Assembly: GCA_037442385.1 (NCBI GenBank) | Contig: JBBIQJ010000002.1 | Location: 1 to 45,963 of the forward strand | Direction of reading: 5' to 3' | Source of the DNA: Armatimonadota bacterium | GTDB taxonomy: Bacteria > Armatimonadota > Fimbriimonadia > Fimbriimonadales > GBS-DC | DNA length: 45,963 nucleotides | In this document: in pieces, positions 338 to 45,963 of the stretch | Layout of the letters: each line of letters opens with the position of its first letter | Numbering within the stretch: the first letter of the stretch is position 1 | The notes under the pieces: model-generated | What the model was told of the DNA's origin: nothing | The model's input: the letters and a program-made list of their open reading frames with translations, nothing else | Databases searched by the model: none | Position numbers and translations under genes: made by a program

Positions 338-1567
338 GTGATCCAAATGGCTTGTACGAAAGGGCTTTCCAAGCGAAGCGCGATGTATGTAGCGGTTGTG
401 GGAATGTGTCTCTCTACCTGTGCAGCTAGCCTCCCAGCGCAACAGCTCACATGGCTGGGCACCCTGGGCGGCAGCTACAGCGCTGCCGAAGCCATCTCTG
501 CAGACGGCTCTACCGTTGTGGGCTGGTCGTGGACAACCTCTGGGTATTCTTCCCATGCATTTCGCTGGAATCGGTTCACCTTGATAATGCAAGACCTCGG
601 AACCTTAGGAGGCGACTACAGCTGGGCTTATGGCGTTTCTGCAGATGGCTCAGTGGTCGTGGGGTGGTCCCCGCCTCTGAATAGTTCCCAGCATGCGTTT
701 CGCTGACAAAACGGCGTGATGACCAATCTGGGTACCTTGGGGGGCTATGCCAGCCAGGCTTACGCCGTGTCTGCGGATGGTTCCGTGGTGGTTGGGACTT
801 CTGTAACGGCACAGGGCAGTTCCAGGGCGTTCCGTTGGATTGAAGGTACAGGAATGGAAGATTTGGGAACGCTCCCCGATGGTACTTACAGTGTCGCGCG
901 CGGCATTTCTGCAGACGGAAGCGTGATTGCGGGTGTGTCTACAAACGCTGGTGGGAACTACCGCGCGTTCCGCTGGACCGAGAACGAAGGCATGCAAGAT
1001 CTGGGCACGCTGGGAGGTAACGAGAGCAGCGCCACTGCTGTTTCTGCGGACGGCACGGTGGTGGTCGGGTTCTCACGCAACCCCGCAGGAGCTTTTCGGG
1101 CTGTTCGCTGGACTCAGGACGGCATCGAAGATCTGGGTGCCGGGGAAGCCTACGCGGTCTCGGCAGATGGTTCCGTCATCGTCGGTCAATCTAATAGTCG
1201 AGCGTTCCGCTGGACCCCCACTAGGGGCTGGGAAGATCTGAATGTAGTCTACGCGCAGCTCCTGGGCGGCTCCGTGTTGAATAGAGCCACGGGCGTGAGC
1301 GCGGACGGGCGCTACATCGTCGGTCAGGGTTATAACGCCGCGACTGGGCGCTTCGAGGCTTTCCTGCTCGACACGGGACCATCCTGCTTATCGCATCAGG
1401 GCGATGTGAATGAGGATGGCTGCGTAGACGACGCGGACCTGCTCGTAGTTCTGTTTGCCTTCGGGCAGAGCGGTTCTGCACTGGGGCGCGAGGATGTCAA
1501 CTGCGATAGCGTGGTGGACGACGCCGACCTGTTGGTTGTGCTGTTCCATTTTGGCACAGGGTGCTAG
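338..1567 (+). pseudogene. HAF-repeat secreted protein with C-terminal double dockerin-like module, interrupted by an in-frame TGA at 704-706
   Basis: The N-terminus is signal-peptide-like (MACTKGLSKRSAMYVAVVGMCLSTCAASLPA). About 8 tandem HAF-type repeats follow (GTLGG..A.G[VI]SADGSVVVG.S...[HR]AFRW). ORFs 338-706 and 716-1567 share one frame and are separated only by a TGA at the consensus Trp position (HAFR*QNGVMTNLGTLGG). TATAAT lies at 322-327. Confidence 0.75.
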
Positions 1568-12541: not shown

Positions 12542-13135
12542 GTGACACGCGACCAGCTGGTCAGGATAGAGAATGATGTGGTGCGGGCGCTGGTTCACGC
12601 GCTGGAGATGGCGCATCCCCATCTGGAGGGACACAGCGAGCGTGTAGCCACCTATGCAGTAGCCATCGGCTGTGAGATGGGATTGAGCAAGCCCACCCTG
12701 CGCCTGCTCCGAATCGCGGGCGCCCTGCACGATATCGGCATGCTCGCCCTCCCCACACCCCTGCTCACCCGGACGAACCCAACCGCCGAAGAGTGGGAAC
12801 AGATTCGAAGCCACCCCACACTGAGCGTGCAACTGTTGCGGCGCATTCACCGTTTCAAAGACGCCCTCATCTGGGTGGAGTGCCATCACGAACGCTGGGA
12901 TGGGCGCGGCTATCCGTTCGGCTGGCGTGAAGAGCAGATTCCCCTGCCCGCGCGAATCTTAGCTGTCGCCGAGGCGTTTGATGGCATGCGCACTCCCATG
13001 CCCTACCGCGACGCGCTCTCCGAGCAGGAGGCGCTGGAACTCATCCAGCAAGGCGCGGCAACCCAGTTCGATCCCCTTGTGGTGAAAGCCTTCCTCAAAG
13101 TGCAACCCGTGATTCAACCTGTGGGAAGAGAGTAA
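12542..13135 (+). CDS. HD-GYP domain protein (putative c-di-GMP phosphodiesterase)
   Basis: Motifs HSERVA, ALHDIGMLALP and HHERWDGRGYPFG are present. I chose the GTG at 12542 (GGAGG at 12531-12535) because the ORF-track start at 12467 would include the fadN terminator. Confidence 0.8.
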   Translation: MTRDQLVRIENDVVRALVHALEMAHPHLEGHSERVATYAVAIGCEMGLSKPTLRLLRIAGALHDIGMLALPTPLLTRTNPTAEEWEQIRSHPTLSVQLLRRIHRFKDALIWVECHHERWDGRGYPFGWREEQIPLPARILAVAEAFDGMRTPMPYRDALSEQEALELIQQGAATQFDPLVVKAFLKVQPVIQPVGRE

Positions 13136-13458
13136 AAAATTGCCTCAGGAGTGTCGCCTGAGAACACAATCGCCCTTCAACAAGGAAAGCTGCGAGGCAC
13201 AAGCCGAAACTGGTGGGTTGAGTGGCGCTGGTGCAGGACAGAGCGTCGCCGTAGATAGCGGGTGAACCAGCATCGCTCGGAGGGACCTCCCTTTGGGACA
13301 TCCTCTTCCCTATAAGCAGGAGAGGCTCCATGCAGTAGGCCGAGTCAGGATAATTGCAAAATAACCGTGAAGCATCTGAGCCGATTCAGAAGCATCATTA
13401 CTACCTCTTCACCAACCTTATAACATACACGGCATCATTGCCGACGACAAGCCACTCA

Positions 13459-13626
13459 GACGGCTGAAGTCGCTCTGTCGCAAAGAACGGGGGATTCGTT
13501 GAACAGGACGCGGGAACCGCGTCCGTACGGGCATCCGTAGGGGCGCGGTCGCGCGCCCCACGCGGCAAAATTAACCGTGCCACGAGGTGGAATGCAAATC
13601 CTTGCGACAGAGCAGCTTTAGCCGTC
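13459..13626 (+). repeat. Copy 1 of a hairpin-rich palindromic intergenic element (MITE/REP-like)
   Basis: Terminal inverted repeats are GACGGCTGAAGTCGCTCTGTCGCAAAG ... CCTTGCGACAGAGCAGCTTTAGCCGTC. The core GAACAGGACGCGGGAACCGCGTCCGTAC is shared with the copies at 33784-33925 and 44241-44397. Confidence 0.8.
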
Positions 13627-13688
13627 TGGCACTGTCATAATCGCCCCTTACGCCAAAAAGCCAACCTTTCAGGTACACTTATAGCGCC

Positions 13689-14438
13689 GTGCTGGTGCAG
13701 ACCTACATTCACATTCCGGGCATTACGCAGGAGATTGAGGTGTCGCTCTGGCGTCAGGGGGCGAGCGATTGGGAGACGCTGCTGGAAACACCGGATCGCT
13801 GGCGCATTCCAGAGCCGTATCGAAGCGCCTTGATCGCAGGCGTGGAACGCTCCATAGAAGCCTTCGAAGAAGGCAATTACCCCTACTTCGCCACCCGACT
13901 GCCGCCGCGCGAACACTGGCGCGCCTACGAAGAGTACCGCCACGAAACCGCCTTTCTGGACATCGAAACCGATGGCGCCAACACTATCACCGTGATTGGC
14001 GTCTACGATGGCGAAGAGGTCTACCAGTTCGTGCAGGGCGACAATCTGGACGAGTTCCCCGATTTCATTCGCGAGTTTTCCATGCTGGTTACCTTCAACG
14101 GTCTCCACTTTGACCTGCCGATGATTAACCGTCAGTTCCCGTCGCTGGCATTTGACCAGTTGCATCTAGATTTGTGTCCCACTTTGCGGCGTGTGGGGTT
14201 GCGCGGCGGCTTGAAACGCATCGAGGAGCTGCTTGGGCTGGTGCGCGACCCCGATCTGGAAGGCATGGACGGCATGGACGCGATTCGCCTCTGGAAAGCC
14301 TACCGACTGGGGCATCACAGTGCGCTGGAGACGCTGTTGCGCTACAATCGGGAAGATATTGTGAACCTGAAGCCGCTGGCGAATCTCGCCTACACGCGCC
14401 TGCGCGAACGGCTCTGGCGCCAGGCGACAGCGCTTTAG
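13689..14438 (+). CDS. RNase H-fold (YprB/PolB-exonuclease-like) predicted 3'-5' exonuclease
   Basis: It has FLDIETDG (ExoI-like DxE), TFNGLHFDLPMI and LLRYNREDIVNL motifs. The GTG start lies 9 nt after TACACT. Confidence 0.7.
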   Translation: MLVQTYIHIPGITQEIEVSLWRQGASDWETLLETPDRWRIPEPYRSALIAGVERSIEAFEEGNYPYFATRLPPREHWRAYEEYRHETAFLDIETDGANTITVIGVYDGEEVYQFVQGDNLDEFPDFIREFSMLVTFNGLHFDLPMINRQFPSLAFDQLHLDLCPTLRRVGLRGGLKRIEELLGLVRDPDLEGMDGMDAIRLWKAYRLGHHSALETLLRYNREDIVNLKPLANLAYTRLRERLWRQATAL

Positions 14439-31573: not shown

Positions 31574-31828
31574 TCAGCCTTTCAGGGGAAGCAGGCGCTC
31601 GCGGGCTAACTCCGCCGCATAAGCCAGCGCAACGCGAATGGCGGCAGGCGTTAGCGTCGGATAGCTCTGGAGCAGGTCGGCTTCACTTACGCCAGCTGCC
31701 AGATTGCCCAGAATGACCAACACGGGGATACGCGCCCCTTTGATGCACGCCTGCCCGTGGCAGATGGCAGGGTCGGCGGTGATGTACTCCTGCCACTTGA
31801 GCGGCTCAGATGCCATTGCGGCTTTCAC
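31574..31828 (-). CDS. DUF433 domain protein (antitoxin-like)
   Basis: ADPAICHGQACIKGARIPVLVILGNLAAGVSEADLLQSYPTLTPAAIRVALAYAA is the DUF433 pattern. TATACT at 31837-31842 lies just upstream. The start is GTG 31828 or ATG 31816. Confidence 0.75.
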   Translation of the reverse strand: MKAAMASEPLKWQEYITADPAICHGQACIKGARIPVLVILGNLAAGVSEADLLQSYPTLTPAAIRVALAYAAELARERLLPLKG

Positions 31829-32064
31829 CCTGTGGAAGTATACCTGATCCGTGACGGTGGCACATCAAGGGGCATCGAAACCAAATCACATCGCTGTCCA
31901 GCAGACAGCGATTCATCGGGGTTCCTCCCCGATATGCACGCCTGCTGCCAGCGCCTGCTGGGGGGGCTACTCGTCATCGGGCATGTCGCTCCAGACGTCA
32001 GCAAAGAGCAGGGTGGCTATCTGGCTTTCGTCGGCTTGGATAGGAATGAGCACCACAAGGAATT

Positions 32065-32074
32065 GGGCTATAAT
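32065..32074 (+). promoter_or_regulatory. -10 element GGGCTATAAT placed 6 nt before the ATG (leaderless mRNA predicted)
   Basis: The sequence is gggcTATAATagagctATG, with no room for a Shine-Dalgarno sequence. Confidence 0.5.
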
Positions 32075-32080
32075 AGAGCT

Positions 32081-33772
32081 ATGCGTACGCGACGACTGTT
32101 TTGGGCAGGCTTATGGTGTCTCACAGCGAGTTTGTATGGGCAGACTCTGGTTGACCCGAACCTCACCTACGATACGGTGGTCGCCTCGGGATTGAGCTTG
32201 CCCATCGCGATAGCGTTTCTGGAGCCTTCCAATCCGAACCGCTTTTTTGTGATTGAGAAAAACACGGGGCGCGTGAAGCTGGTGGAGAACGGCACGGTCG
32301 TGGCGACCGTGCTGGATTTGCCCGTCAACAACGCCAGCGAACGCGGGCTGCTGGGGATTGCGCTTCACCCCGACTTCGCCCAGAACGGTTATGTGTACCT
32401 TTACTACACGCGCTCCAGCACAGGTTCAGATACAGGAACCCAATCCGCATGGATTGATAACCGCGTGGAGCGCTACACATGGAACGGCAGTAGCCTTGTG
32501 AACCCCACCCTGATAGTTTCTTTCCCGCGCGATACCACCCAGAATAACGGACCCAATCACGACGGGGGCGTGATTCTGTTCGGTCCTGATGGGCGGCTCT
32601 ACGGGGTCACGGGCGACCTGAATCGGGGGCGGCTCACCAACGGGCGTATCGAGCAGAACACCAGCGCCACAGCGGTGGCGGGCGTGGGTGGAATCTTCCG
32701 CCTGAACCCCGACGGCTCCATCCCGCCCGATAACCCGTTCGTGTCGCATTCCGACCCGCGCATTCGGCGCCTGTGGGCGTACGGAATCCGCAATAGCTTC
32801 GGCATGGTGTTCGATACGCTCACCGCAAAGTTCTGGATGACCGAAAACGGTCCAAATGTATACGACGAGATTAACCTCGTGGAGCGCGGCTTCAACAGCG
32901 GCTGGCTCAAGATTATGGGACCCGATTCGCGGGATGCGGCGTACCCTGAAAACGGCAACACCGCCTACGACGCTACCGATCTGGTCTACCTCCCCAATTC
33001 CTACTACGCCGACCCGCTCTTCTCATGGCTGACCCCGATTGGCGTAACGAGTATCCAGTTTTTGCGCTCGGCGCGATTCGATTCGGATGTGCGCGATAAT
33101 GCGGTGGTGGGCGAATCGAACAATGGGCAGCTCTACTTTTTCAGGGTGAACGCCGCACGCGACGATTTCGTGCTTTCAGGCGCGCTGGCAGACCGTGTTG
33201 CCGACTCCTCTGCAGAACGCAACAGTCTTGCCTGGGGCACAGGCTGGGGCATCGTTACCGACCTCAAAATCGGTCCCGACGGCTATCTCTATGTGGTCTC
33301 GATGTTTGCCAATCGGGTCTATCGGATTCGCCCCGTGAATCCGCCTGAAGTGGTGAACGGTCAGGCGCGTCTGGAAGGGCGTGTGGGGATTCCTCTCGGA
33401 GTGCCGCTCCAGCTCACGCTCCTGCAGAACGGCAACCCGGTGCAAACCATCATGACGGCGCTGGACGCCTACGGGTGCTTCTCGGAGCGCGTGAACGCGC
33501 CGGGTGTTTACACGGTGCGAGCGAAGGCGGGCACTTATGTTTCCATCACAATCCCGAATGTGTCGGTTTCGGCGCAGGGGTTCGCCTATCTTCCTTTACA
33601 GTTCGCGATTAACGGCGATGTGAACGGCGACGATGTGATTGACGACGCCGACCTGCTCGCCGTGCTGTTCGCGTTCGGACAGAGTGGCTCGCCTGCCGAC
33701 CTGAACAACGACGGCGTGGTGGATGACGCCGACCTCCTCACAGTGTTGTTCAACTTCGGCAGCGGCGGATAG
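32081..33772 (+). CDS. PQQ-dependent/soluble aldose sugar dehydrogenase-like beta-propeller protein with C-terminal double dockerin-like module
   Basis: It has signal peptide MRTRRLFWAGLWCLTASLYG. ERGLLGIALHPDF..NGYVYLYYT, GPNHDGG and YGIRNSFGM are the sorbosone/glucose dehydrogenase patterns. The terminal 52 aa are GDVNGDDVIDDADLL...NNDGVVDDADLLTVLFNFGSGG. Confidence 0.8.
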   Translation: MRTRRLFWAGLWCLTASLYGQTLVDPNLTYDTVVASGLSLPIAIAFLEPSNPNRFFVIEKNTGRVKLVENGTVVATVLDLPVNNASERGLLGIALHPDFAQNGYVYLYYTRSSTGSDTGTQSAWIDNRVERYTWNGSSLVNPTLIVSFPRDTTQNNGPNHDGGVILFGPDGRLYGVTGDLNRGRLTNGRIEQNTSATAVAGVGGIFRLNPDGSIPPDNPFVSHSDPRIRRLWAYGIRNSFGMVFDTLTAKFWMTENGPNVYDEINLVERGFNSGWLKIMGPDSRDAAYPENGNTAYDATDLVYLPNSYYADPLFSWLTPIGVTSIQFLRSARFDSDVRDNAVVGESNNGQLYFFRVNAARDDFVLSGALADRVADSSAERNSLAWGTGWGIVTDLKIGPDGYLYVVSMFANRVYRIRPVNPPEVVNGQARLEGRVGIPLGVPLQLTLLQNGNPVQTIMTALDAYGCFSERVNAPGVYTVRAKAGTYVSITIPNVSVSAQGFAYLPLQFAINGDVNGDDVIDDADLLAVLFAFGQSGSPADLNNDGVVDDADLLTVLFNFGSGG

Positions 33773-33783
33773 CAGGAAAACCC

Positions 33784-33925
33784 GCTCTGTTGCAAAGCAC
33801 GGGGGATTTGGGAACAGGACGCCGGAACCGCGTCCGTACGGGCATGGGGAGGGCGCGGTTCCCCATGCCCCACGCGGCGAGGTCTGCCATGCCACAGGGG
33901 CGAATGTGCCTCCTTGCAACAGAGC
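33784..33925 (+). mobile_element. Copy 2 of the palindromic element, flanked by 10-nt direct repeats AGGAAAACCC (33774-33783 and 33926-33935)
   Basis: The TIRs are GCTCTGTTGCAAAG ... CCTTGCAACAGAGC, with shared core GAACAGGACGCCGGAACCGCGTCCGTAC. The flanking duplication was read directly. Confidence 0.7.
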
Positions 33926-33974
33926 AGGAAAACCCGCCCCTGCCGAGAAACTTTCTCCGTGAGGAGAGAAAGCG

Positions 33975-34814
33975 ATGCATGTTGGAATACTCACCGCGCC
34001 TTTCGGAAATGAAGCTCTGGAGAGGGTTTTCGAGTTCGCACGCCAGCACGGGTTCAAAACGCTGGAGCTCGCCTGCGGCTATGGTCATCCGCACCTGAAT
34101 CTGGAATCGCCCGATGTGGACACCCTTAAGCGTCTCATGGACAAAACGGGCGTGGGACTATCGGCGATTGCGTTCTATACCAACAACACGCATCCCGACC
34201 CCACCGAACGCCAGCGCAATAACGACGGCGTGCGTAAGGCGATTGAGATTGCCCACGCACTCGGCGTTTCGGTGGTCTGCACGCTCGCGGGGCACCCGGT
34301 GCCAGGTAAGAGCAAGATGCAGACCATCGAGGAAGACTGCGCTCAGGTGTTTCGTCCCCTCGCGGAGTACGCTGGCGAGCGCGGCGTCAATATCGCCCTC
34401 GAAAACTGGTTCGCCACCAACATCCAGGCGTTAGACCACTGGCAGCGACTGTTCGAGGTTGTGCCTCATCCCAACTTCGGGCTGAACTTTGACCCCTCCC
34501 ATCTGCTGTGGCAACAGATTGACTACATTAACGCCGTGTTCCTGTTCGGATCGCGGATTTTCCACACGCATGCGAAAGACACCGAGATAATGCGCCAGCG
34601 ACTGGAGTATGTGGGCAATCAGGGCACAGGTTGGTGGCGCTATGTGATCCCAGGGCTGGGGCAGGTGCGCTGGGGCGAGTATATCGGCGCGCTCCGTCGT
34701 GTGGGCTATAACGGCGTGCTGTCTATCGAACACGAAGATAGCGCGGTCGGACGCGAAGAGGGCTTCCTCATCGGCAAGCGCTATCTGGAGCAGTTTATCG
34801 CGGAGGTGCCTTGA
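33975..34814 (+). CDS. Sugar phosphate isomerase/epimerase (xylose isomerase-like TIM barrel)
   Basis: It shows GFKTLEL, VNIALENW, NFDPSHLLWQ and VLSIEHED, the metal-ligand pattern of AP-endonuclease-2/TIM family proteins. Confidence 0.8.
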   Translation: MHVGILTAPFGNEALERVFEFARQHGFKTLELACGYGHPHLNLESPDVDTLKRLMDKTGVGLSAIAFYTNNTHPDPTERQRNNDGVRKAIEIAHALGVSVVCTLAGHPVPGKSKMQTIEEDCAQVFRPLAEYAGERGVNIALENWFATNIQALDHWQRLFEVVPHPNFGLNFDPSHLLWQQIDYINAVFLFGSRIFHTHAKDTEIMRQRLEYVGNQGTGWWRYVIPGLGQVRWGEYIGALRRVGYNGVLSIEHEDSAVGREEGFLIGKRYLEQFIAEVP

Positions 34815-34817
34815 ACC

Positions 34818-35450
34818 ATGCGAACCACGCTGGCAATCATGCTTCTGCTGGGGCTGGGGTGGGCACAAAGTCTGCCCACGCCCCAGGCGGTGCTGAATCG
34901 GCTCATGCAGAAGGCGAAAGCCACTCGCGCCTACGCCTATCAGTGGGATTACTTCAAGCGCGACCCCAGCACAGGCAAAATGGGCGCCAGGCAGGTCTAC
35001 AAATTGGAGTTCCTCAAACCCCACTACCGCAAGCTCACCATCATCCAGCGCGACCTGTTCAGTAACGGCGCAGTGCTCATCTATAACCCCGACCAGGATA
35101 GCAAAGTGCATGCCCGCAAGGGGATTATCCACCGCACTTATGCTCCTGACGACCCCGAAGTCGCCGACTTTTTCCGAACCGATCTGGAGTGGATTGCAAA
35201 CGACCTCCAGCGGCTTTTTAAGGGAGCGAAAGCCGAACCCGTCCAGCGCGTGAAATACAACAACCGGGACTGCTTCCGAGTCGCCTTCGCCCCGAAAGAC
35301 GACCCCTACACGCGCGTCGTACTGTGGGTCGAGGTGAACGACTCGATGCCCATTCGGATTGAGTATTATGACTCAAAGGGACTCTACTCGGTGCGCGAGT
35401 ATACCGACTACTCGTTCCCCAATCTGAAAGTGGACGATTTTCGGATTTGA
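34818..35450 (+). CDS. Secreted hypothetical protein, possibly LolA-fold/DUF1571-like
   Basis: It has signal peptide MRTTLAIMLLLGLGWAQS and starts 4 nt after the upstream stop. The family call is weak. Confidence 0.55.
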   Translation: MRTTLAIMLLLGLGWAQSLPTPQAVLNRLMQKAKATRAYAYQWDYFKRDPSTGKMGARQVYKLEFLKPHYRKLTIIQRDLFSNGAVLIYNPDQDSKVHARKGIIHRTYAPDDPEVADFFRTDLEWIANDLQRLFKGAKAEPVQRVKYNNRDCFRVAFAPKDDPYTRVVLWVEVNDSMPIRIEYYDSKGLYSVREYTDYSFPNLKVDDFRI

Positions 35451-35457
35451 CAACCCT

Positions 35458-36018
35458 TTAGAAATCAAACAACTCTTTCACCTTGCACCGAAAGTCAGGT
35501 AGCAGGTCGCCTCCTGTGAGTTCCTCCTCTGCCGAGAGGGTGCGCACCTCAAACGGCGCGGTATACACATTCACGGTGCGCGTTTCTGGGAACAGCAGCC
35601 ATACCTGTTTGGCGCCCGACTCAAAATACTCCCCAATTTTGCGTAGCAGGTCGGCGACATCTTCGTTCGGGGAAACAATTTCCACGGCTAGATCAGGGGC
35701 GCCATGCTCAAAGCCTTTGGCGGGTTTGCCATCGGGGAGGCGCTCTTTGAGAGTGAAGGCGACATCGGGGCTTCGAATGTTGCCGTTCGCCATGCGAAAC
35801 CCTGCCTGCGAACCTGCTACATAGCCGCGCCCCTTTGCAGCAGGCACCATGCGAGCAATCAACTCAGCTCCAATCACATCGTGTTCATGTCCTGCAGGCA
35901 CTTCCTTGACCTCCCCGTCGACCAGTTCATATTTGCGCCCGTCGTCGGGCAGACGCAGAAACTGCTCCTCCGTAAGTCGGCGGGCTCGTCTGGATTTGTG
36001 CGCAACCGCTCTGGACAT
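35458..36018 (-). CDS. Uma2 family (DUF820) restriction-endonuclease-fold protein
   Basis: YELVDGEV...SPDVAF...APDLAVEIVSP...K...Y...G..QVWLL is the Uma2 D..(D/E)xK pattern. Confidence 0.8.
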   Translation of the reverse strand: MSRAVAHKSRRARRLTEEQFLRLPDDGRKYELVDGEVKEVPAGHEHDVIGAELIARMVPAAKGRGYVAGSQAGFRMANGNIRSPDVAFTLKERLPDGKPAKGFEHGAPDLAVEIVSPNEDVADLLRKIGEYFESGAKQVWLLFPETRTVNVYTAPFEVRTLSAEEELTGGDLLPDFRCKVKELFDF

Positions 36019-36341
36019 CCCCGAATCACCAGAGCAATTTTACCCCCAAATTGCCCAGTTTTGGCAGGAGCGAAACTCGCTTCCCCGCGAATTCGTAGTA
36101 TAATTGTATGGAGAAGCCCTGCATTGCAGGGAAGTGTCCTTGACAATTGGGTGTATCGCAGCGTCGCTCCCCACAAGGCGGTTTTCAACTGGCTCGGGAT
36201 TTATGGAACAATTTCCCCTGAAAGCATGGAACTCCCTGCAGGCGTCGCAGAGTCTAACCGATAATCATGGTGGGAGTGGCGACAGAGCCGTCCTGCGGGG
36301 GGCAATGTGTGATGCACCCGACCCAACAAGGGGGTAAAACG

Positions 36342-38270
36342 ATGAGCGCATCGGACTTCTTGCGCCAGATAGAAGAGCAGCGCCGTTTGGAAAAACAGAT
36401 TACATGGGAAGGCACTTTTCGGGACTATCTGGAGATTGTCCAGAAGAACCCGAAGGTGGCGAACCTGGCGCACGCGCGCGTCTACGACATGATTCTCAGC
36501 GCAGGCGTGGAAGAGCGTGGCGAGGGGCAACCACGCGAGTATCAATTCTTCACCTCAGAACTGTTCGGCATGGAGCGCACGCTCCAGCAGCTGGTGGAGG
36601 AATACTTCGCGCCCGCTGCACGCCGACTCGATGTGCGCAAGCGCATCCTGTTGCTGGTGGGGCCCGTCGGTGGGGGGAAGTCCACGCTGGTCACCATGCT
36701 CAAGCGGGGGCTGGAGCGCTATTCCCGAACCGACGAGGGCGCCGTGTACGCCATCAAAGATTGCCCTATGCACGAAGAGCCGCTCCATCTCGTGCCCGAA
36801 GAACTACGCGCCGACTTCAAGCGCCAGTTCGGCGTGCATATCGAGGGCGACCTCTGCCCCGTGTGCCAGTGGAAACTCAAGCACGAGTGGGGCGAAAACA
36901 TCGAGAATGTGCCTGTCGTGCGCATCAAATTCTCCGAGCGTGAGCGCGTCGGAATCGGCACCTTCAAGCCTTCGGACCCCAAATCGCAGGATGTCTCCGA
37001 ACTGACGGGGAGCGTGAACCTGAACCTGCTGACCCAGATTGGCGTGGAATCGGACCCGCGCGTCTACAATTTCGACGGCGAGCTGAACAAGGCGAACCGC
37101 GGCCTCATGGAGTTCATCGAGATGCTCAAGGCGGACAAGCGCTTCCTCTATGAGCTGAACACCGTCGCGGGCGAGCAGATGATTAAAATCGGGCGGTTCG
37201 CACTGATTTACACCGATGTCGTGGTGATTGCGCACACCAACGAGTACGAATACAACGCCTACTTCTCCAACAAGGAGAACGAGGCGATGATTGACCGCAT
37301 GTTTGTGGTCAAAGTGCCCTACAACCTGCGCGTCTCGGAAGAGATTCGGATTTATGACAAGCTCATCCAGCAGTCGCAGTTCAGCGACGAAACCCAGGAC
37401 CTCTCGAAAGTGCATATCGCGCCGCATGCGTTGCGGGTGGCGGCGATGTTCGCCGTGCTGAGCCGCCTGAAACCCCCCAAGAAGAGCGGGATGTCGCTGA
37501 TGACCAAGATGAAACTCTACGACGGCGAGCGTCAGGTCGGCGATTGGGACCAGCGCCATGTAAAAGAGTTGCGTGAGGAGTACCCCGACGAAGGCATGAA
37601 CGGCGTCTCACCCCGATTCATTCTCAACCGCCTCTCGGCGGCGATGGTCAAGGGGCGCCAGTGCATCACGCCCATCGATATCCTGCGCTCCATCCGCGAC
37701 GGGCTGACCGAATACACCAGCAACGAGGAGGAGCGCAAGAAGCTCCTCACTTTCCTGGACGATGTGCGCAAGGAATACGACGAACTCATCAAGAAAGAGG
37801 TGCAGCGCTTCTTCGTCTACAGCTACGAGGAAGCCGCCCACACCCTGCTGGAGAACTATCTCGATAATGTGGACGCCTACTGCAACAAGACCAAAGTGCG
37901 CGACCCCATCACGGGCGAGGAAGTAGACCCCGACGAGAAGCTCATGCGGAGCATCGAGGAGCAGATTGGCGTCTCCGAGAACGCCAAGCGCGAGTTCCGT
38001 GAGGGGATTATGCGCTCTGTGGCGTCGCTGGCGCGGCGCGGCATCCGCTTCGAGATTGGCAGCGACGAGCGCCTGCGCGAAGCCATTGAGCGCAAACTGT
38101 TCGCCGACCTCAAAGATGTGGTCAAGATTACCACCTCCGCACGCACGCCCGACCCCGAACAGCTGCGCAAAATCAACGAGGTGGTCAACCGCATGGTGGA
38201 ACAGGGCGGCTACTGCCCCATCTGCGCCAACGAGGCGCTCCGCTATGTGGGCACATTGCTGAACCGATAA
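36342..38270 (+). CDS. prkA: PrkA family serine protein kinase (AAA+ N-terminal)
   Basis: It shows LLLVGPVGGGKSTLV (Walker A), GLMEFIEMLKADKRFLYELN and full PrkA length (642 aa). AGGGGG precedes the ATG at 36342. Confidence 0.88.
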   Translation: MSASDFLRQIEEQRRLEKQITWEGTFRDYLEIVQKNPKVANLAHARVYDMILSAGVEERGEGQPREYQFFTSELFGMERTLQQLVEEYFAPAARRLDVRKRILLLVGPVGGGKSTLVTMLKRGLERYSRTDEGAVYAIKDCPMHEEPLHLVPEELRADFKRQFGVHIEGDLCPVCQWKLKHEWGENIENVPVVRIKFSERERVGIGTFKPSDPKSQDVSELTGSVNLNLLTQIGVESDPRVYNFDGELNKANRGLMEFIEMLKADKRFLYELNTVAGEQMIKIGRFALIYTDVVVIAHTNEYEYNAYFSNKENEAMIDRMFVVKVPYNLRVSEEIRIYDKLIQQSQFSDETQDLSKVHIAPHALRVAAMFAVLSRLKPPKKSGMSLMTKMKLYDGERQVGDWDQRHVKELREEYPDEGMNGVSPRFILNRLSAAMVKGRQCITPIDILRSIRDGLTEYTSNEEERKKLLTFLDDVRKEYDELIKKEVQRFFVYSYEEAAHTLLENYLDNVDAYCNKTKVRDPITGEEVDPDEKLMRSIEEQIGVSENAKREFREGIMRSVASLARRGIRFEIGSDERLREAIERKLFADLKDVVKITTSARTPDPEQLRKINEVVNRMVEQGGYCPICANEALRYVGTLLNR

Positions 38271-38275
38271 ACAGA

Positions 38276-38300
38276 GGGGCGGCAACCCACTTGCCGCCCC
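38276..38300. terminator. Bidirectional hairpin between convergent prkA and the 401-aa gene
   Basis: The stem is GGGGCGGCAA / TTGCCGCCCC (10 bp) with loop CCCAC. Confidence 0.65.
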
Positions 38301-38321
38301 AACTGTGTGCAATCTCCAGAT

Positions 38322-39527
38322 TCAGTGAGCTCTTTGGCAGGGGAAGGCATCTCCAACGGGTCCAATATTGGGTGGAATGGTGATCCCACCGCCGATGCCA
38401 GGAATAGTCTGCTCGAGACGGGTAACTGTCACCCAACAGACCCAGCGCTCGCACAGACGCACCTGCCCATTGACGCAGCAGAAAATATCCCTGATTTTGA
38501 TCAGGTCAAACACATAGACTTGACAGAAAATATCTACTCTCGTGTTCGTATTGTTAACAACGGTGATAGTGATACAACCTCCTATCTCGCCGACGATTTT
38601 AATGTCTCCCAGATCAACCCTTCCACCAGGCATTGGCAATCGAATGCCGAAGTTCGCAGCAAACTCCACTGCAGCACGACCACATAGGCGATAGGTTTTC
38701 GTACTCCCAACCTGGCTGTCAATCGAGCCACATCGCACAAGATTTCCGGTGCGCCTTCGGTTGACAACAATCCACTCGCCCTCGACTTGTTTGCGTCCGT
38801 TCACGAAGCCATCACAGTCTCTGGGGCGCCTCGGCATTGCTGAAGGGGGGATAAGAGAGGTTTTTGTTCCTGGGGGTACCCTTATCACTGCCTCAGCCCA
38901 CTTTGGCATTCCAGGTCGTTCCCTATCTGGCGCAGCCCCCTCGAAATCTCCATGCTCAAAGAGAATCCAGCCGAGATGCCCCTCAACGGGGAAGCCAACA
39001 GAGGCTATTGGGCGATTACTCTCGTCAACCATCGCAGGTAAGTCGCGTATGCTCATTGGGTCAATTACCAGATCGTCTTCGCTATCCACACCCATTTTTG
39101 TTGAGGCGAAATGGAGCGTACCCAAAAGACGCTCTTCGGAATCTGACTTGCGGGCATAAAACCAGAGATAGCCATGATTTGCGCCATCTTCATAAGTTGG
39201 CACTATAACCATAGACTGAGCAGAGCGCTCCAGTATCTTGCAGTTAGCAGCGACAATCACCAGCGTCTCACCTGTCTGGAGCCATTCTCGGAGATCAGGA
39301 GAAAACCGCACTGTGACAGCCCGTTCGGGTTCGAAGAGCAGGACGGGCAAACGTGCTTCCCCTGAAAATGGAATCTCTTCGCCGCCTAACCCCAAGCAGC
39401 AAAATGTTTTGACGCTCCATGAACCTGTTGCAGAAGCGAAAGCATTTGCCAGCATCTGGCTAGCAAACGCCAGCATAATCAACACGCCAGCCCGAATCGA
39501 CTTTTGCATCTGCCTCACTGTACGCAT
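38322..39527 (-). CDS. Hypothetical 401-aa secreted Cys-rich protein, no recognisable family
   Basis: It has a signal-like N-terminus (MQKSIRAGVLIMLAFASQMLANAFA). It is the only long ORF on either strand here, and its G+C is lower than the flanks (37-53% in spot counts). The C-terminal ~120 aa contain 8 Cys. Confidence 0.6.
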   Translation of the reverse strand: MRTVRQMQKSIRAGVLIMLAFASQMLANAFASATGSWSVKTFCCLGLGGEEIPFSGEARLPVLLFEPERAVTVRFSPDLREWLQTGETLVIVAANCKILERSAQSMVIVPTYEDGANHGYLWFYARKSDSEERLLGTLHFASTKMGVDSEDDLVIDPMSIRDLPAMVDESNRPIASVGFPVEGHLGWILFEHGDFEGAAPDRERPGMPKWAEAVIRVPPGTKTSLIPPSAMPRRPRDCDGFVNGRKQVEGEWIVVNRRRTGNLVRCGSIDSQVGSTKTYRLCGRAAVEFAANFGIRLPMPGGRVDLGDIKIVGEIGGCITITVVNNTNTRVDIFCQVYVFDLIKIRDIFCCVNGQVRLCERWVCWVTVTRLEQTIPGIGGGITIPPNIGPVGDAFPCQRAH

Positions 39528-39563
39528 CCGTGTTATCTGCCATAAAATCGTTTACACTTTCGT

Positions 39564-39677
39564 TTACAATCGTCGGGAAGCATTCAGTCGTTGCAGTATC
39601 GCGTCATAAAAGTCAACGAGGGCTTCTTGCGCCTCCTCGACTACCTCCAGAATTGTCAACGATTCGCGCTCGTCCAC
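39564..39677 (-). CDS. Possible 37-aa ORF (GTG start) or the 3' part of a frameshifted gene
   Basis: AGGAG lies 6 nt before the GTG. The product is (M)DERESLTILEVVEEAQEALVDFYDAILQRLNASRRL, and the frame is open further upstream without a start codon. Confidence 0.25.
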   Translation of the reverse strand: MDERESLTILEVVEEAQEALVDFYDAILQRLNASRRL

Positions 39678-39838
39678 TGGCTGCTCCTGTACGCACCGCG
39701 CAATATCCTCCAGTCGTAGAGTAGCAGCAACGGATCGCCCTGTATGACAGGGTAGGTAGGTTGCGCACGCAAATCCTGAAACATGTCCGCAACCTCTCTG
39801 CTATCGTACTCCAAGCGTCGCTTGTATTGATCTCGCAT
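39656..39838 (-). CDS. Small hypothetical ORF (60 aa) with strong expression signals
   Basis: GAGGAGG precedes the ATG at 39838, and a TTGACA-N18-TATACT promoter lies about 75 nt upstream. Confidence 0.45.
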   Translation of the reverse strand: MRDQYKRRLEYDSREVADMFQDLRAQPTYPVIQGDPLLLLYDWRILRGAYRSSQWTSANR

Positions 39839-39913
39839 GTTAGCCTCCTCTAATGCATTTGGTGGACGGACGGGGAGACCCCCGCCCTATCCACCCTCTC
39901 TGAGTGTAAATGG

Positions 39914-39943
39914 AGTATATCACATCGTTGACGGCTTTGTCAA
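39914..39943 (-). promoter_or_regulatory. Near-consensus sigma-70 promoter (TTGACA-N18-TATACT) with upstream phased T-tracts
   Basis: The minus strand reads CCCTTTTTTCGCCTTTTTTCGCGCGTACCCTTTGACAaagccgtcaacgatgtgaTATACT. Confidence 0.6.
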
Positions 39944-40243
39944 AGGGTACGCGCGAAAAAAGGCGAAAAAAGGGCAAATCGCATTCGAAAGGTTTACACT
40001 TCGGGCGTAAACGAATTTATGGCACAAAACACTCCGTCTGAGCTTTCTGTGGAGGGATCACAACTTACACTCTCCTTACTAACTTAACACCACAAACCGC
40101 CCTATCGTCACATCAAAGCTCTCTCCGCGTTCCACAAGCTTCACTGTACCCCGCGTCATCGGCTACACCTTGCCTTCTGTATTTCAGGGTTTACTCGCAA
40201 GCATCCAGCTCCTGCCCTTGTCTGGAGGTGAAGCAACGCCAGC

Positions 40244-40252
40244 GGGTATAAT
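40244..40252 (+). promoter_or_regulatory. -10 element GGGTATAAT for gyrB
   Basis: gggtataat lies 43 nt upstream of the ATG at 40296, with GGAGG in between. Confidence 0.45.
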
Positions 40253-40274
40253 CATGCTGAAACTCAATCAGTAG

Positions 40275-42347
<2,073 letters not shown>

Positions 42348-42372
42348 AAAGACAAAAGGTATACTCTCAACA

Positions 42373-42411
42373 GGCGTGCGCGTGTCTTTTGCGAAACAAA
42401 CACGCCGTTTT
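42373..42411 (+). terminator. Probable terminator after gyrB
   Basis: An outer stem GGCGTG/CACGCC encloses an imperfect inner stem and is followed by GTTTTG. Confidence 0.4.
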
Positions 42412-42437
42412 GCCATCTGTACCCAGTGGAGGTCGCT

Positions 42438-44204
42438 ATGAGAAAAATCGGTTTGTGGCTCGGTTTACTCACCGCTTTGGCGTTTGCCCTCGCGGATGTG
42501 CCCACCGCCTCGGTGAGCAACCTGCAATCGCATGTGAAGACGCTGGCGTCGCCTGAAATGGAGGGGCGTCTGGCGATTGCCCCCGGCGGACACAAGGCAG
42601 GTGAATACATCGCGCGCATGTTCGCCGAGTATGGGCTGGAGCCAAAGGGCACGCAGGGCTACTTTCAGGACTTTGAGATGACCCTCGGCTATACAACAGG
42701 CAAAGGCACCGCGTTCCGTGTGGAGTTCGCCAACGGCAACCGCTGGGAAGTGCCTGCCGACTCCTTCCGTCCCAGCAACCTGAGCGAGAACACCACCACC
42801 GAAGGCGAGGTGGTGTTCGTGGGGTATGGCTTGAACCTGCAGGAGCCAGCCTATGACGACTATGCGGGTGTCGAGGTCAAAGGCAAAGTTGTTGCGATTC
42901 TGCGCGGCGCGCCCGAATGGATGGATGCGGGCATGGCGCAGCGCGTGGCGCGAATCCCGAACAAACTCCGCACGGCGTTCGAGAAGGGCGCGGCAGGCGT
43001 GATTCTGCTGAACCTGCCCAATCAGCCCTTGCTACCGCTGGGTATGCGCGGGAGGGCGAGCGTTGTCTCCGGCGCGGTGATGAATGTCAATACGGAGGTT
43101 GCCAACCGCCTGCTCAAAACCGCGAACCTGACAGTAGAAGAGGCGGTCAAGCGCATCAACGAGACCAAACAGCCTGTCAGTGCCGCCCTGCCCGTAAAAG
43201 TGGTGATGACGGTTCAGCTGGAGCCGCGTAAGGGGATTGCTCGCAATGTAATCGGATTTTTACCTGGTGCGGACCCCAACAAGCGCGAGGAGATACTCGT
43301 GATTGGGGCGCACTATGACCACCTTGGCTACGGCGAGGTCGGCTCGCTGGCGTTTGAACCAGGCGAGATTCACTACGGCGCCGACGATAACGCTTCGGGC
43401 ACGGCAGGGCTTCTGGAGCTGGCGCGAATCCTCTCGCTCCAGCGCGAGAAGCTGCCGCGAAGCATCCTGTTTATCGCCTTCTCGGGCGAAGAAGAGGGTC
43501 TGGTTGGCTCCGCCTACTTCGTGCGCAACCCCACTGTGCCCAGAGACAAAATCGTGGCGATGCTCAATCTGGACATGATAGGACGCCTGCGTGAAGACCG
43601 CCTCTCCGTCAGCGGGCTGGGCAGCTCGCCTCAGTGGGAAGAGATTGTCAAGGCGGCCAACACCGACGGCTTGACTCTTAACCTGAGCCAGGCCAGCACC
43701 GGCGGGAGCGACCACACCTCCTTCTTTATGGCAGACATCCCCGTGCTGTTCTTCTTCACGGGCATGCATCCCGAATATCACCGTCCTGCGGATAGATGGG
43801 ACACGATTAACTACGAGGGTCAGGCGAAGGTGGTGGCGATAGTGGAGCGCGTGGCGCGCCACCTGGCACAACGCGAGGAGCGCATCGCCTTCAGCCGTCC
43901 CAGCCAGCCTGCGCCTGCGACGGGCGCCCGTGCGGGATTCCGCGTGCGGATTGGGCTTATCCCCGAATATTCGGGCGAGGCGAACGGCGTGTTGCTTGGC
44001 GGAGTTGTGCCTGGCTCACCTGCCGAAAAGGCAGGGCTTAAGGCGGGCGACCGTATCGTCGCCGTGATGGGCAAGCAGGTCAAGAGCATCGAGGAACTGA
44101 CCCAGCTCTACGATCAGATGGAGCCAGGCAAACCCGTGGAGTTCACTATCGTGCGCAACGGGCAGGAGATAAAAGTGCAGGTTGTGCCTGCCGCGCCGCA
44201 GTAA
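42438..44204 (+). CDS. M28 family aminopeptidase with PA domain and C-terminal PDZ domain
   Basis: It has signal peptide MRKIGLWLGLLTALAFALA and the M28 Zn ligands in GAHYDHLGYG, GADDNASGTAGLLELA and FSGEEEGLVGS. The PDZ tail reads GVLLGGVVPGSPAEKAGLKAGDRIVAV. GGAGG lies 5 nt before the ATG. Confidence 0.85.
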   Translation: MRKIGLWLGLLTALAFALADVPTASVSNLQSHVKTLASPEMEGRLAIAPGGHKAGEYIARMFAEYGLEPKGTQGYFQDFEMTLGYTTGKGTAFRVEFANGNRWEVPADSFRPSNLSENTTTEGEVVFVGYGLNLQEPAYDDYAGVEVKGKVVAILRGAPEWMDAGMAQRVARIPNKLRTAFEKGAAGVILLNLPNQPLLPLGMRGRASVVSGAVMNVNTEVANRLLKTANLTVEEAVKRINETKQPVSAALPVKVVMTVQLEPRKGIARNVIGFLPGADPNKREEILVIGAHYDHLGYGEVGSLAFEPGEIHYGADDNASGTAGLLELARILSLQREKLPRSILFIAFSGEEEGLVGSAYFVRNPTVPRDKIVAMLNLDMIGRLREDRLSVSGLGSSPQWEEIVKAANTDGLTLNLSQASTGGSDHTSFFMADIPVLFFFTGMHPEYHRPADRWDTINYEGQAKVVAIVERVARHLAQREERIAFSRPSQPAPATGARAGFRVRIGLIPEYSGEANGVLLGGVVPGSPAEKAGLKAGDRIVAVMGKQVKSIEELTQLYDQMEPGKPVEFTIVRNGQEIKVQVVPAAPQ

Positions 44205-44240
44205 ACGCTAACAGGCAGGTGAACCTGCAACGGGAGATTC

Positions 44241-44397
44241 GGCTCTGTCGCAAAGAACAGGGGATTCGCGGAACAGGACGCGGGAACCGCGTCCGTACCA
44301 GCATGCGTAGGGGCGCGGTCGCCGCGCCCCATGCGGTGAAATGAATCGTGCCACGAGGTGGAATGCGAAGCCTTGCGACAGCGCAGCTTTAGCCGTC
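44241..44397 (+). repeat. Copy 3 of the palindromic element (left arm shortened)
   Basis: It reads GCTCTGTCGCAAAGAACAGGGGATTCGCGGAACAGGACGCGGGAACCGCGTCCGTAC ... CCTTGCGACAGCGCAGCTTTAGCCGTC, nearly identical to copy 1. Confidence 0.8.
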
Positions 44398-44439
44398 CTG
44401 CTTCCGCCCCACGAAGCCGACCTGCGTCAGCTGAAGTAG

Positions 44440-44466
44440 CACGCGCATCCTGCGCGTGATTTTGGG
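44440..44466 (+). terminator. Rho-independent terminator downstream of copy 3
   Basis: The stem is CACGCGCA / TGCGCGTG (8 bp) with loop TCC, followed by ATTTTGGG. Confidence 0.6.
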
Positions 44467-45375: not shown

Positions 45376-45963
45376 TTACGCGCCGCAGCCGAAGTTGAAC
45401 AGCACAATCAACAGGTCGGCATCGTCCACAGTGCCATCCTGGTTGATATCCGACGAACCGCAGAAGCCGGAGCAGCCGAAGTCGAACAGCACCTGAAGCA
45501 GGTCGGCATCGTCCACAGTACCGTCGCCGTTCACATCACCCTCGCAGCCGCCACCGCCTGCGCAACCCTGCTCGCTCACGAAGTAGGCGCCCTCCAGCTG
45601 GATCTGATAGGTTCCGCTTGCACTGGTTGTGCCTGTCCAGTCCGCAATCGGGTTCGTGTTATCTGCGCAGGAGAGCGCACTTGAACTCCACAACGGCGAA
45701 CCGTTCGCGTCTACAGGATCGCGGTTGTAGCGACTGATTGCCAGCAGGTAGGTGCCTGCCTGGGTGATACATCCAGGCGTGTTGTCGATGCGGGACTGTA
45801 AGCCGTTGTAGTCATCATTCCCCACAAGTCCTACTCCGTCGCAGGTGAACAGCCAGAGCTGGGTGTCAAACCCTGCGCTGCCCACTGTGGTGGCGACGAA
45901 GCTGGCGGGGTCGGTGATACAGATGACATACATATCCACGCCGTTGGCTTCCAGAGCACCGCG
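45376..45963 (-). CDS. Partial (5'-truncated by window) secreted protein: PPC-like pre-peptidase C-terminal-type domain + double dockerin-like module
   Basis: The frame stays open to nt 45963 (..RGALEANGVDMYVICITDP). FDTQLWLF..DG.GLVGNDD...AGTYLLAIS resembles PPC domains. The terminal 54 aa are GDVNGDGTVDDADLL...DINQDGTVDDADLLIVLFNFGCGA. Confidence 0.7.
   Translation of the reverse strand, partial: RGALEANGVDMYVICITDPASFVATTVGSAGFDTQLWLFTCDGVGLVGNDDYNGLQSRIDNTPGCITQAGTYLLAISRYNRDPVDANGSPLWSSSALSCADNTNPIADWTGTTSASGTYQIQLEGAYFVSEQGCAGGGGCEGDVNGDGTVDDADLLQVLFDFGCSGFCGSSDINQDGTVDDADLLIVLFNFGCGA

Follow-up and report, generated by a model that had tools for sequence, protein, structure and literature searches.

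What is the hairpin-rich repeat that recurs between the genes of this 45,963-nt stretch of DNA (hereafter the window; positions 1 to 45,963 of contig JBBIQJ010000002.1, assembly GCA_037442385.1): a mobile element, or an RNA structure belonging to the transcripts in which it would lie? An initial annotation had recognised, correctly, that a palindromic, non-coding sequence bounded by terminal inverted repeats (TIRs) recurs here, and had leaned towards a structured RNA in 3' untranslated regions (3'-UTRs). We find that the three sequences are very probably copies of a non-autonomous miniature inverted-repeat transposable element (MITE) of ~144 nt with an 8-bp target duplication and a palindromic target, an identification made because the insertions duplicate 8 bp of target, favour palindromes, and in one case can be compared with an empty orthologous site. 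Apart from a known autonomous partner, the structural features expected of a MITE are found together: the element is short and non-coding, has TIRs, a fixed-length duplication and both filled and empty sites, and occurs in multiple dispersed copies.

Copies, target duplications and empty sites

An alignment spanning ~145 nt places three copies of the element in the window, all on the + strand, with identities over the element proper of 89% between copies 1 and 3, 80% between copies 1 and 2, and 77% between copies 2 and 3. The 28-nt core, GAACAGGACGCGGGAACCGCGTCCGTAC, occurs three times in the window at no more than one mismatch, compared with no occurrence in 100 shuffles, and a terminal 14-mer occurs six times, as three inverted pairs, compared with 0.46 occurrences expected; the alignment and these counts bear out the three places, the strand and the TIRs that had been annotated. 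The 8-bp core hairpin with its 3-nt loop and the extended pairing in copy 1 are also as first described. No fourth copy was found in the window by nhmmer with a profile made from ~20 copies. The parts of the three copies are as follows (flanks and duplications carry no strand).

13460..13470, no strand: left flank of copy 1, ACGGCTGAAGT, left part of the target palindrome that the insertion splits
13471..13614, + strand: copy 1, element proper, 144 nt, with core, TIRs and profile match
13471-13485, + strand: copy 1 left TIR, CGCTCTGTCGCAAAG
13506-13524, + strand: copy 1 core hairpin, GGACGCGG-GAA-CCGCGTCC
13600-13614, + strand: copy 1 right TIR, CCTTGCGACAGAGCA
13615..13625, no strand: right flank of copy 1, GCTTTAGCCGT, right part of the target palindrome that the insertion splits
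33775..33782, no strand: copy 2 left target-site duplication, GGAAAACC
33783..33926, + strand: copy 2, element proper, 144 nt, with TIRs at 33783-33797 and 33912-33926
33817-33835, + strand: copy 2 core hairpin, with one mismatch
33927..33934, no strand: copy 2 right target-site duplication, GGAAAACC
44241..44385, + strand: copy 3, element proper, 145 nt
44241-44255, + strand: copy 3 left TIR, GGCTCTGTCGCAAAG
44276-44294, + strand: copy 3 core hairpin
44371-44385, + strand: copy 3 right TIR, CCTTGCGACAGCGCA
44386..44396, no strand: right flank of copy 3, GCTTTAGCCGT, right part of the canonical target palindrome

With the ends of the element set as TG...CA, the 8 bases outside each end were compared at 21 distinct sites, in the window and in loci fetched from elsewhere (given below as L numbers). 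The two 8-mers are identical at 8 of the 21 sites and agree at 7 of 8 positions at two more; when left and right flanks are permuted, the mean number of perfect matches is 1.3, and 8 was never reached in 20,000 permutations (P < 5e-5). The perfect duplications include 8-mers that are off the target consensus, namely GGAAAACC at window copy 2 and AAATATGC at L011. At copy 1, the left 8-mer GCTGAAGT, a degenerate copy of the duplication, equals the right 8-mer GCTTTAGC at 5 of 8 positions, and at copy 3 the match of the left flank (ACGGGAGATTC, 44230-44240) to the right flank has been lost. A 12-bp and then a 6-bp duplication were tried and rejected; they fail on canonical copies, and flank positions 2 and 11 differ systematically between left and right. 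TG..CA ends with an 8-bp duplication are consistent with all cases.

An empty orthologous site is available for copy 2. Locus L035 aligns with window positions 32183-43393 in blocks of 88-93% nucleotide identity and is 88-91% identical on either side of copy 2, where it lacks the element and has a single GGAAAACC; the junctions read GGATAGCA-GGAAAACC-element-GGAAAACC-CGCCCC in the window and GGATAGCA-GGAAAACC-TGCCCC in L035. A paralogous empty site, ...TTAGGAACG-GCTTTAGC-CGTCGCTCTTTCGG..., is seen in L032 and L029 and is split by the element in L017, where GCTTTAGC is doubled and the insertion flanks reproduce the unoccupied paralogue base for base on both sides. A further insertion, that of L011/L035, gave no clean empty site when compared with the window, the intergenic region differing by ~650 nt. 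As a separate observation, L016, L020, L029 and L043 have one left flank followed by the element and four different right flanks; the right flank of L043 is that of L023, and such sharing is also seen between L023 and L032.

The same flanks bear on whether the copies could have arisen by segmental duplication, gene conversion or recombination without any transposition, or could themselves be recombination sites such as integron attC. Several loci do share one flank and differ in the other, the synteny of relatives breaks exactly at copies 1 and 3, and the window copies all follow genes in a single orientation, which is also how attC sites are placed. Duplication or conversion, however, leaves unexplained both why independent sites have unrelated target 8-mers repeated directly at the two ends (GGAAAACC, AAATATGC) and the precise filled/empty pairs. 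attC sites have the core motifs RYYYAAC and GTTRRRY, and the element ends (GCTCTGTYGCAAAG) show no core-site match by eye; moreover, no integrase family was detected among the proteins scanned beside the copies, and the orientation elsewhere is mixed. We consider an origin of this kind scarcely credible.

Target duplication also separates the element from repeats of the repetitive extragenic palindromic (REP), REPIN or BIME type, which would be spread by a RAYT protein (IS200/IS605-like, Y1) acting on single-stranded hairpins. The element resembles such repeats in being intergenic, palindromic and rich in hairpins, it forms mosaics with other small palindromic modules, and its flanks are sometimes in an inverted arrangement. 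REP/REPIN spread is not known to produce a target-site duplication, and REPs are palindromes of ~20-40 nt with a conserved 5' tetranucleotide. The element has conventional TG..CA TIRs, a significant 8-bp duplication and clean filled/empty site pairs, and no RAYT gene was seen in the small parts of the genomes that were covered. Because a target duplication is present, we do not take the element for a REP or REPIN, and we judge such an origin very improbable.

Modules, distribution and a candidate mobilising enzyme

The MITE has 15-nt TIRs, NGCTCTGTYGCAAAG...CTTTGCRACAGAGCA, with TG..CA tips, and across the aligned copies the conserved termini are (T/G/C)GCTCTGTYGCAAAG ... CTTTGCRACAGAGCA. The 15-nt TIR is found on both ends in all three window copies and in most others, and in the terminal helix 293 of 311 informative cells are Watson-Crick pairs. 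Between the termini, the non-coding interior falls into three kinds of module: the 5' arm (A), the hairpin unit (B) and the 3' arm (C). The B unit, that is, the core hairpin GGACGCGG-GAA-CCGCGTCC together with a second GC hairpin, may be absent, single, double or repeated ~7 times in tandem, so canonical elements measure 140-147 nt, two-hairpin variants ~175-186 nt and an array variant ~540 nt. The last is a single insertion seen in three loci (L021 = L034 = L039), in which 6.8 tandem units of 66 nt make up a 540-nt element; the second hairpin is absent from L003 and occurs twice in L004 and L007. The 5' and 3' arms differ strongly among subfamilies, and pairing between the arms past the TIR is not conserved. 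A symmetrised derivative, in which a 5' arm and the core hairpin are followed by the reverse-complemented 5' arm of another subfamily, is found at L024 3024-3135 and L042 2413-2524; an extra solo right end lies ~110 nt downstream of it.

This modularity accounts for an apparent case of compensatory evolution in copy 2, whose second hairpin had been annotated as differing in sequence yet keeping its pairing. The hairpin is instead a different module, the alternative variant of the GGGGCACGG-TTC-CCGTGCCC type also present in L004, L007 and L014, with a small deletion, and the 3' arm of copy 2 instead pairs with an upstream segment. Some outside copies are irregular at their ends. L001 (7331-7467) and L033 (3323-3464) carry orthologous insertions that have no left TIR, the stop codon of the upstream gene occupying its place, and in this pair a convergent gene abuts the other end of the element, which thus seems to supply or overlap gene ends. 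L014 and L031 contain the 5' half of the element followed by unrelated DNA with no transposase-like open reading frame (ORF).

Outside the window, all copies were found through an exact 23-25-nt core pattern. Among 185,579 species-representative genomes, this pattern yields 8 copies, all in one fragmentary metagenome-assembled genome (MAG) of an uncultured member of the Fimbriimonadales, and in metagenome contigs it yields 35 loci, many of which are one organism resampled; the MAG, the metagenome loci and the window together give ~30 distinct insertions. Copies are present at a density of 3 in the 46-kb window and 2-3 per 120-250-kb metagenome contig. Viral contigs contain no match to the core, and their TIR-only matches are chance matches. 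The relatives L045-L049, whose flanking proteins are ~80-90% identical, have no copy in ~66 kb of DNA. Homologues of a window protein bear names that place the window itself in the Fimbriimonadales, phylum Armatimonadota. As judged from these searches, the family looks lineage-restricted. A search of the open literature for the element sequences and for Armatimonadetes MITEs returned no description of the element or of MITEs in the Armatimonadota.

How might such an element move? The terminal repeats would be bound by a DDE transposase whose gene lies at another place in the genome or has since been lost, and which would mobilise the element in trans; insertion at the centre of a palindrome would then duplicate 8 bp of target, the duplication and the target preference being the observed parts of this scheme. 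The number of B units could change by replication slippage or unequal recombination, and recombination between copies could produce the mismatched flanks seen in some of them. The enzyme may belong to the ISL3 family, to judge by the 8-bp duplication and the element ends: the inverted repeats of published ISL3 elements start GGCTCTTCG, and their insertion makes 8-bp direct repeats (ISArsp7, ISPst2; PMC6305408 Table 3), and an ISL3-mobilised MITE with ISL3-type ends is described in Microcystis (PMC11448079). Copy 3 starts GGCTCTGTCGC, and the family consensus is TGCTCTGTYGC, which compared with the ISL3 start has one extra base and usually a T at position 1. The likeness of the ends to ISL3 is a resemblance, which does not by itself establish family membership, and taken alone an ISL3 assignment of the enzyme is possible but somewhat short of probable. 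We only infer mobilisation in trans and the ISL3 assignment, because no partner transposase was found in the window or the fetched loci. The initial annotation had reported no transposase in the window, and a protein-family scan, which covered the immediate gene neighbours of the three copies as well as the ORFs at 38.3-40.6 kb, agrees with this for the proteins scanned, none of which matches a transposase family.

Several points weigh against the identification as a MITE of this kind. A perfect duplication is lacking at 13 of the 21 sites, and the flanks of L026, L004, L005 and L009 fit better as inverted repeats; decay and recombination between copies are a proposed cause of the imperfect flanks. 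At copy 2, a direct repeat as long as 12-14 nt and a left TIR that opens with CG leave the boundary ambiguous by a few bases. A clean empty site is available for copy 2 only; copies 1 and 3 have none, because the synteny of relatives ends at the element there. The loci that share a left flank and differ on the right could reflect recombination between copies or chimeras of metagenome assembly. The invariance of the core hairpin is an ascertainment artefact of the exact-core search, and it is uninformative on selection because the outside copies were found through that very core. Neither the window nor ~330 kb of fetched loci, in which solo and paired TIRs around ORFs were looked for, yielded a transposase with ends that match those of the element. 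Finally, the fit to ISL3 is partial: most copies start TG where ISL3 elements typically start GG, and a match to GGCTCTTCG requires a 1-nt indel.

Orientation, folding and covariation

The leaning of the initial annotation towards 3'-UTRs raises the possibility that the element is a structured cis-acting RNA, such as a 3'-UTR stabiliser, a terminator or a processing site, the sense copies behind genes being kept by selection. The window copies are all in sense with both neighbours, and copy 3 is preceded by a stop codon and followed by a hairpin with a short T run. A sense orientation of all three has a chance of about one in eight, and the wider set of ~24 distinct insertions does not sustain the orientation bias relative to genes that an RNA function had led one to expect: in gaps between tandem genes, as delimited by crude gene calls, 8 copies are sense and 8 antisense, a further 4-5 lie in divergent promoter regions, and 1 lies between convergent genes. 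Orientation with respect to genes is thus mixed; random orientation was among the outcomes that the initial annotation had listed as refuting its proposal, and it tells here against the RNA reading, the element itself being real and multi-copy.

The three window copies are predicted to fold very stably, each as several hairpins closed by a long terminal stem, with free energies on the plus strand of -97.7, -72.8 and -73.5 kcal/mol (z -8.4, -4.0 and -3.3), which would favour an RNA; the minus strands of two copies, however, fold equally well (-92.4 and -70.9 kcal/mol). When a hand-specified structure is applied to 23 copies, 91% of cells are paired, a value in keeping with maintained hairpins yet barely above controls, and the internal helices are almost invariant. 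The core hairpin does not vary at all, as expected from its ascertainment, and the second hairpin has no double changes, so that almost no covariation is seen in the internal hairpins. Compensatory changes are confined to the terminal repeat, where the symmetry required for transposase binding explains them equally well. Among mismatches, G-U and A-C types number 3 and 7 in the TIR and 11 and 4 in the second hairpin, 6 of those in the second hairpin coming from one inherited change; there is no consistent strand bias and no bias of G-U over A-C on the + strand. An RNAalifold consensus of the 23 copies was set aside; it pairs two similar GC hairpins oddly with each other and shows no useful covariation.

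No match to Rfam was obtained at the gathering score for the window, two copies and seven related loci, and under permissive settings the best E-values were 1.8-7, with scores far under threshold, in accordance with the earlier view that the element could not be assigned to a named RNA family. The arm past the terminal repeat and the last hairpin are also not conserved among subfamilies, and the target duplications and empty sites indicate placement by transposition. BOX and Correia-type repeats do affect the expression of neighbouring genes (PMC3049150), which lends an RNA role some plausibility. On balance, mixed orientation, strand-symmetric folding and near-zero covariation mean that a dedicated 3'-UTR RNA is unsupported, and we hold a structured cis-acting RNA to be highly unlikely as the identity of the element. 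According to the folding models, transcription through a copy, which is probable for copies 2 and 3, will give the mRNA a stem-loop of great stability, and this holds for either strand; effects of this stem-loop on termination or stability are plausible, as predicted consequences secondary to transposition.

Palindromic targets, comparable repeats and gene surroundings

The preferred target of the MITE is the centre of a short palindrome, ACG-GCTGAAGC-CGT, also written ACGGCTKWAGCCGT, with the centre variants GCTTTAGC, GGTGAACC and GGTTCACC. Most other insertions split such a palindrome, and the target of copy 2 is also a small palindrome, GCAGG-AAAA-CCTGC, as read in L035. At least 15 unoccupied palindromes of the form ACGG[CG]TNNN[CG]CCGT are present in the fetched loci, and these are the inverted termini of a second repeat family with a unit of ~105 nt, ACGGCTGAAGCCGTTCCTAT..GAAGCCGAC-CTGC-GTCGGCT..AGCCAGC-GGAG-GCTGGCT-TTGTTTATTAGGAACGGCTTTAGCCGT. 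The inverted palindromes ACGGCTGAAGCCGTTCC form the two ends of the unit, and inside it are the hairpins GCCGAC/GTCGGC and AGCCAGC/GCTGGCT, the latter with a T run. The family is seen in L016, L017, L023, L029, L032 and L036, and in others, and modules of it at window positions 44413-44458. Two of these lie just beyond copy 3:

44413-44432, + strand: second-family module GAAGCCGACCTGCGTCAGCT, which recurs beside elements in other genomes
44440-44458, + strand: second-family hairpin CACGCGCA-TCC-TGCGCGTG, the "terminator" of the initial annotation, which recurs in either orientation beside elements elsewhere

The second family may be REP-like or itself a MITE. As far as the sequences allow one to judge, the gaps between genes in this lineage are patchworks of short palindromic repeats, inserted one into another much as the small repeats BOX, RUP and SPRITE are in pneumococci (PMC3049150). 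A more ambitious joint reading, which we put forward as speculation and think unlikely to hold as a whole, would make the element one tier of a two-tier repeat system of the Fimbriimonadales that homes into the terminal palindromes of the REP-like second family. The B hairpin (GGACGCGG-GAA-CCGCGTCC), kept while the arms diverge and amplified to ~7 copies, would then be a selected binding site for a host protein or the transposase, or a module for RNA stability or termination, and many copies would have been co-opted to shape transcript ends.

Among known systems, the closest in kind are insertion sequences of the ISL3 family and their MITE derivatives (ISArsp7, the Microcystis aeruginosa MITE), which share with the element the 8-bp duplication and a short, non-coding, intergenic and multi-copy character. 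The terminal repeats begin in a similar way, (G)GCTCT..TCGC, as a comparison of ISL3 GGCTCTTCG with copy 3 GGCTCTGTCGC illustrates, whereas the element mostly starts TG rather than GG and has one extra base inside the motif; it also differs in its GC-rich interior with a tandemly variable hairpin module and in its host phylum, the Armatimonadota. BOX of Streptococcus pneumoniae, boxA-(boxB)n-boxC, has the same A-(B)n-C plan of pairing arms around variable, self-folding tandem units, and it likewise clusters with and nests into other small repeats (PMC3049150). The comparison with BOX is one of architecture only, no common origin being apparent; homology would not be expected, given the GC-rich composition of the element and its very distant host. 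The element also makes an evident 8-bp duplication and inserts into a well-defined palindrome. Insertion into the centre or loop of short intergenic palindromes present in many copies, those of the REP/BIME type, is reported for IS1397, ISKpn1 and ISPpu9/10 (PMC1525189). Those elements are autonomous and belong to other families (IS3, IS110), whereas here a MITE inserts, and its target, in contrast to that of the IS1397 type, is the terminal palindrome of another small repeat.

Correia elements of Neisseria and the enterobacterial ERIC/IRU elements are intergenic inverted repeats of 100-160 nt, found in both orientations, whose transcripts fold into long stem-loops. The target duplication of Correia elements is TA, compared with 8 bp for the element described here; the Correia and ERIC repeats also have other terminal repeats and are not known to have a tandem internal module. 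Such intergenic repeats reach 156 bp and are delimited by 26-bp inverted repeats (PMC3049150). Overall, the family is apparently undescribed but of an ordinary kind, and it is not a new RNA gene. It involves no new mechanism, since MITEs built of modules, MITEs of the ISL3 type and insertion directed to palindromes all have precedents; it does add to the Armatimonadota a mobile-element family with a defined palindromic target, and its copies offer strain-level markers of presence or absence. The element accounts for contig breaks, for joins that have the same flank on one side and different flanks on the other, and for synteny breaks in metagenome assemblies of the Fimbriimonadales, and recognising it avoids its annotation as small RNAs or terminators. 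The Logan contig SRR11582144_36609 (L044), which carries the exact window protein 33975-34814, starts at window position 33777, a few bases before copy 2; this start suggests that short-read assemblies break at the element repeat.

According to crude gene calls based on codon-usage scoring, the window copies are all intergenic, the overlapping ORFs being short and mechanical (checked in detail for copy 1 only). The initial annotation had placed all three downstream of + strand genes, which holds directly for copies 2 and 3 but not for copy 1, where the stop codon of the HD_5-domain gene is 324 nt upstream; an RNase_H_2 gene follows 62 nt downstream. Copy 2 comes after a GSDH/dockerin gene whose stop codon TAG is at 33770-33772, the duplication beginning 2 nt and the element 10 nt past the stop, and it precedes a sugar-phosphate isomerase gene by 48 nt. 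Upstream of copy 3, the stop codon of an M28/PDZ peptidase gene is 36 nt away, and downstream come the hairpin CACGCGCA-TCC-TGCGCGTG with ATTTT and then a TenA-family gene. Copy 3 thus does lie between a stop codon and the hairpin at 44440-44458, as annotated, but the description of that hairpin as a terminator is not upheld: the terminator scan made no call, because the T run is short (ATTTT only).

Comparison with relatives adds that synteny between window 13135-13689 and L047 ends inside the copy 1 intergenic region, the upstream neighbour being different in L047, and that synteny between the window from 44205 onwards and L040 from ~6577 ends inside the copy 3 intergenic region, the downstream neighbour being different. 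From this loss of synteny, it follows that the elements at copies 1 and 3 sit at rearrangement junctions.

Four further features of the window are independent of the copies. At the very start of the contig, on the - strand at 34-70, there is a single CRISPR repeat, GTTGCACCCGCCCCCAAGGGCGGGTGTGGATTGAAAC (Rfam CRISPR-DR9, 47 bits), whose array probably continues past the window edge; a link between this repeat and the element was considered and dropped, the two having no evident likeness by eye. A ~1.9-kb segment at 38272-40235, with a G+C content of ~51% compared with 57-62% nearby, is absent from the syntenic relatives L035, L011 and L040 and may be a strain-specific island; a - strand ORF in it (38322-39527, 401 aa) matches nothing in Pfam. 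Pairs of dockerin-like repeats (units of ~70-80 nt, 64-80% identical) are found at 1400-1568, 33614-33773 and 45385-45537, two of them at the ends of predicted genes (716-1567, + strand; 31757-33772, + strand) and the third within a partial gene (45376-45963, - strand). Finally, diverged repeats of 32-48 nt, at a spacing of 117-273 nt, occupy 476-1185, in and just upstream of the ORF at 716-1567 (+ strand), the product of which is probably a repeat-domain protein.

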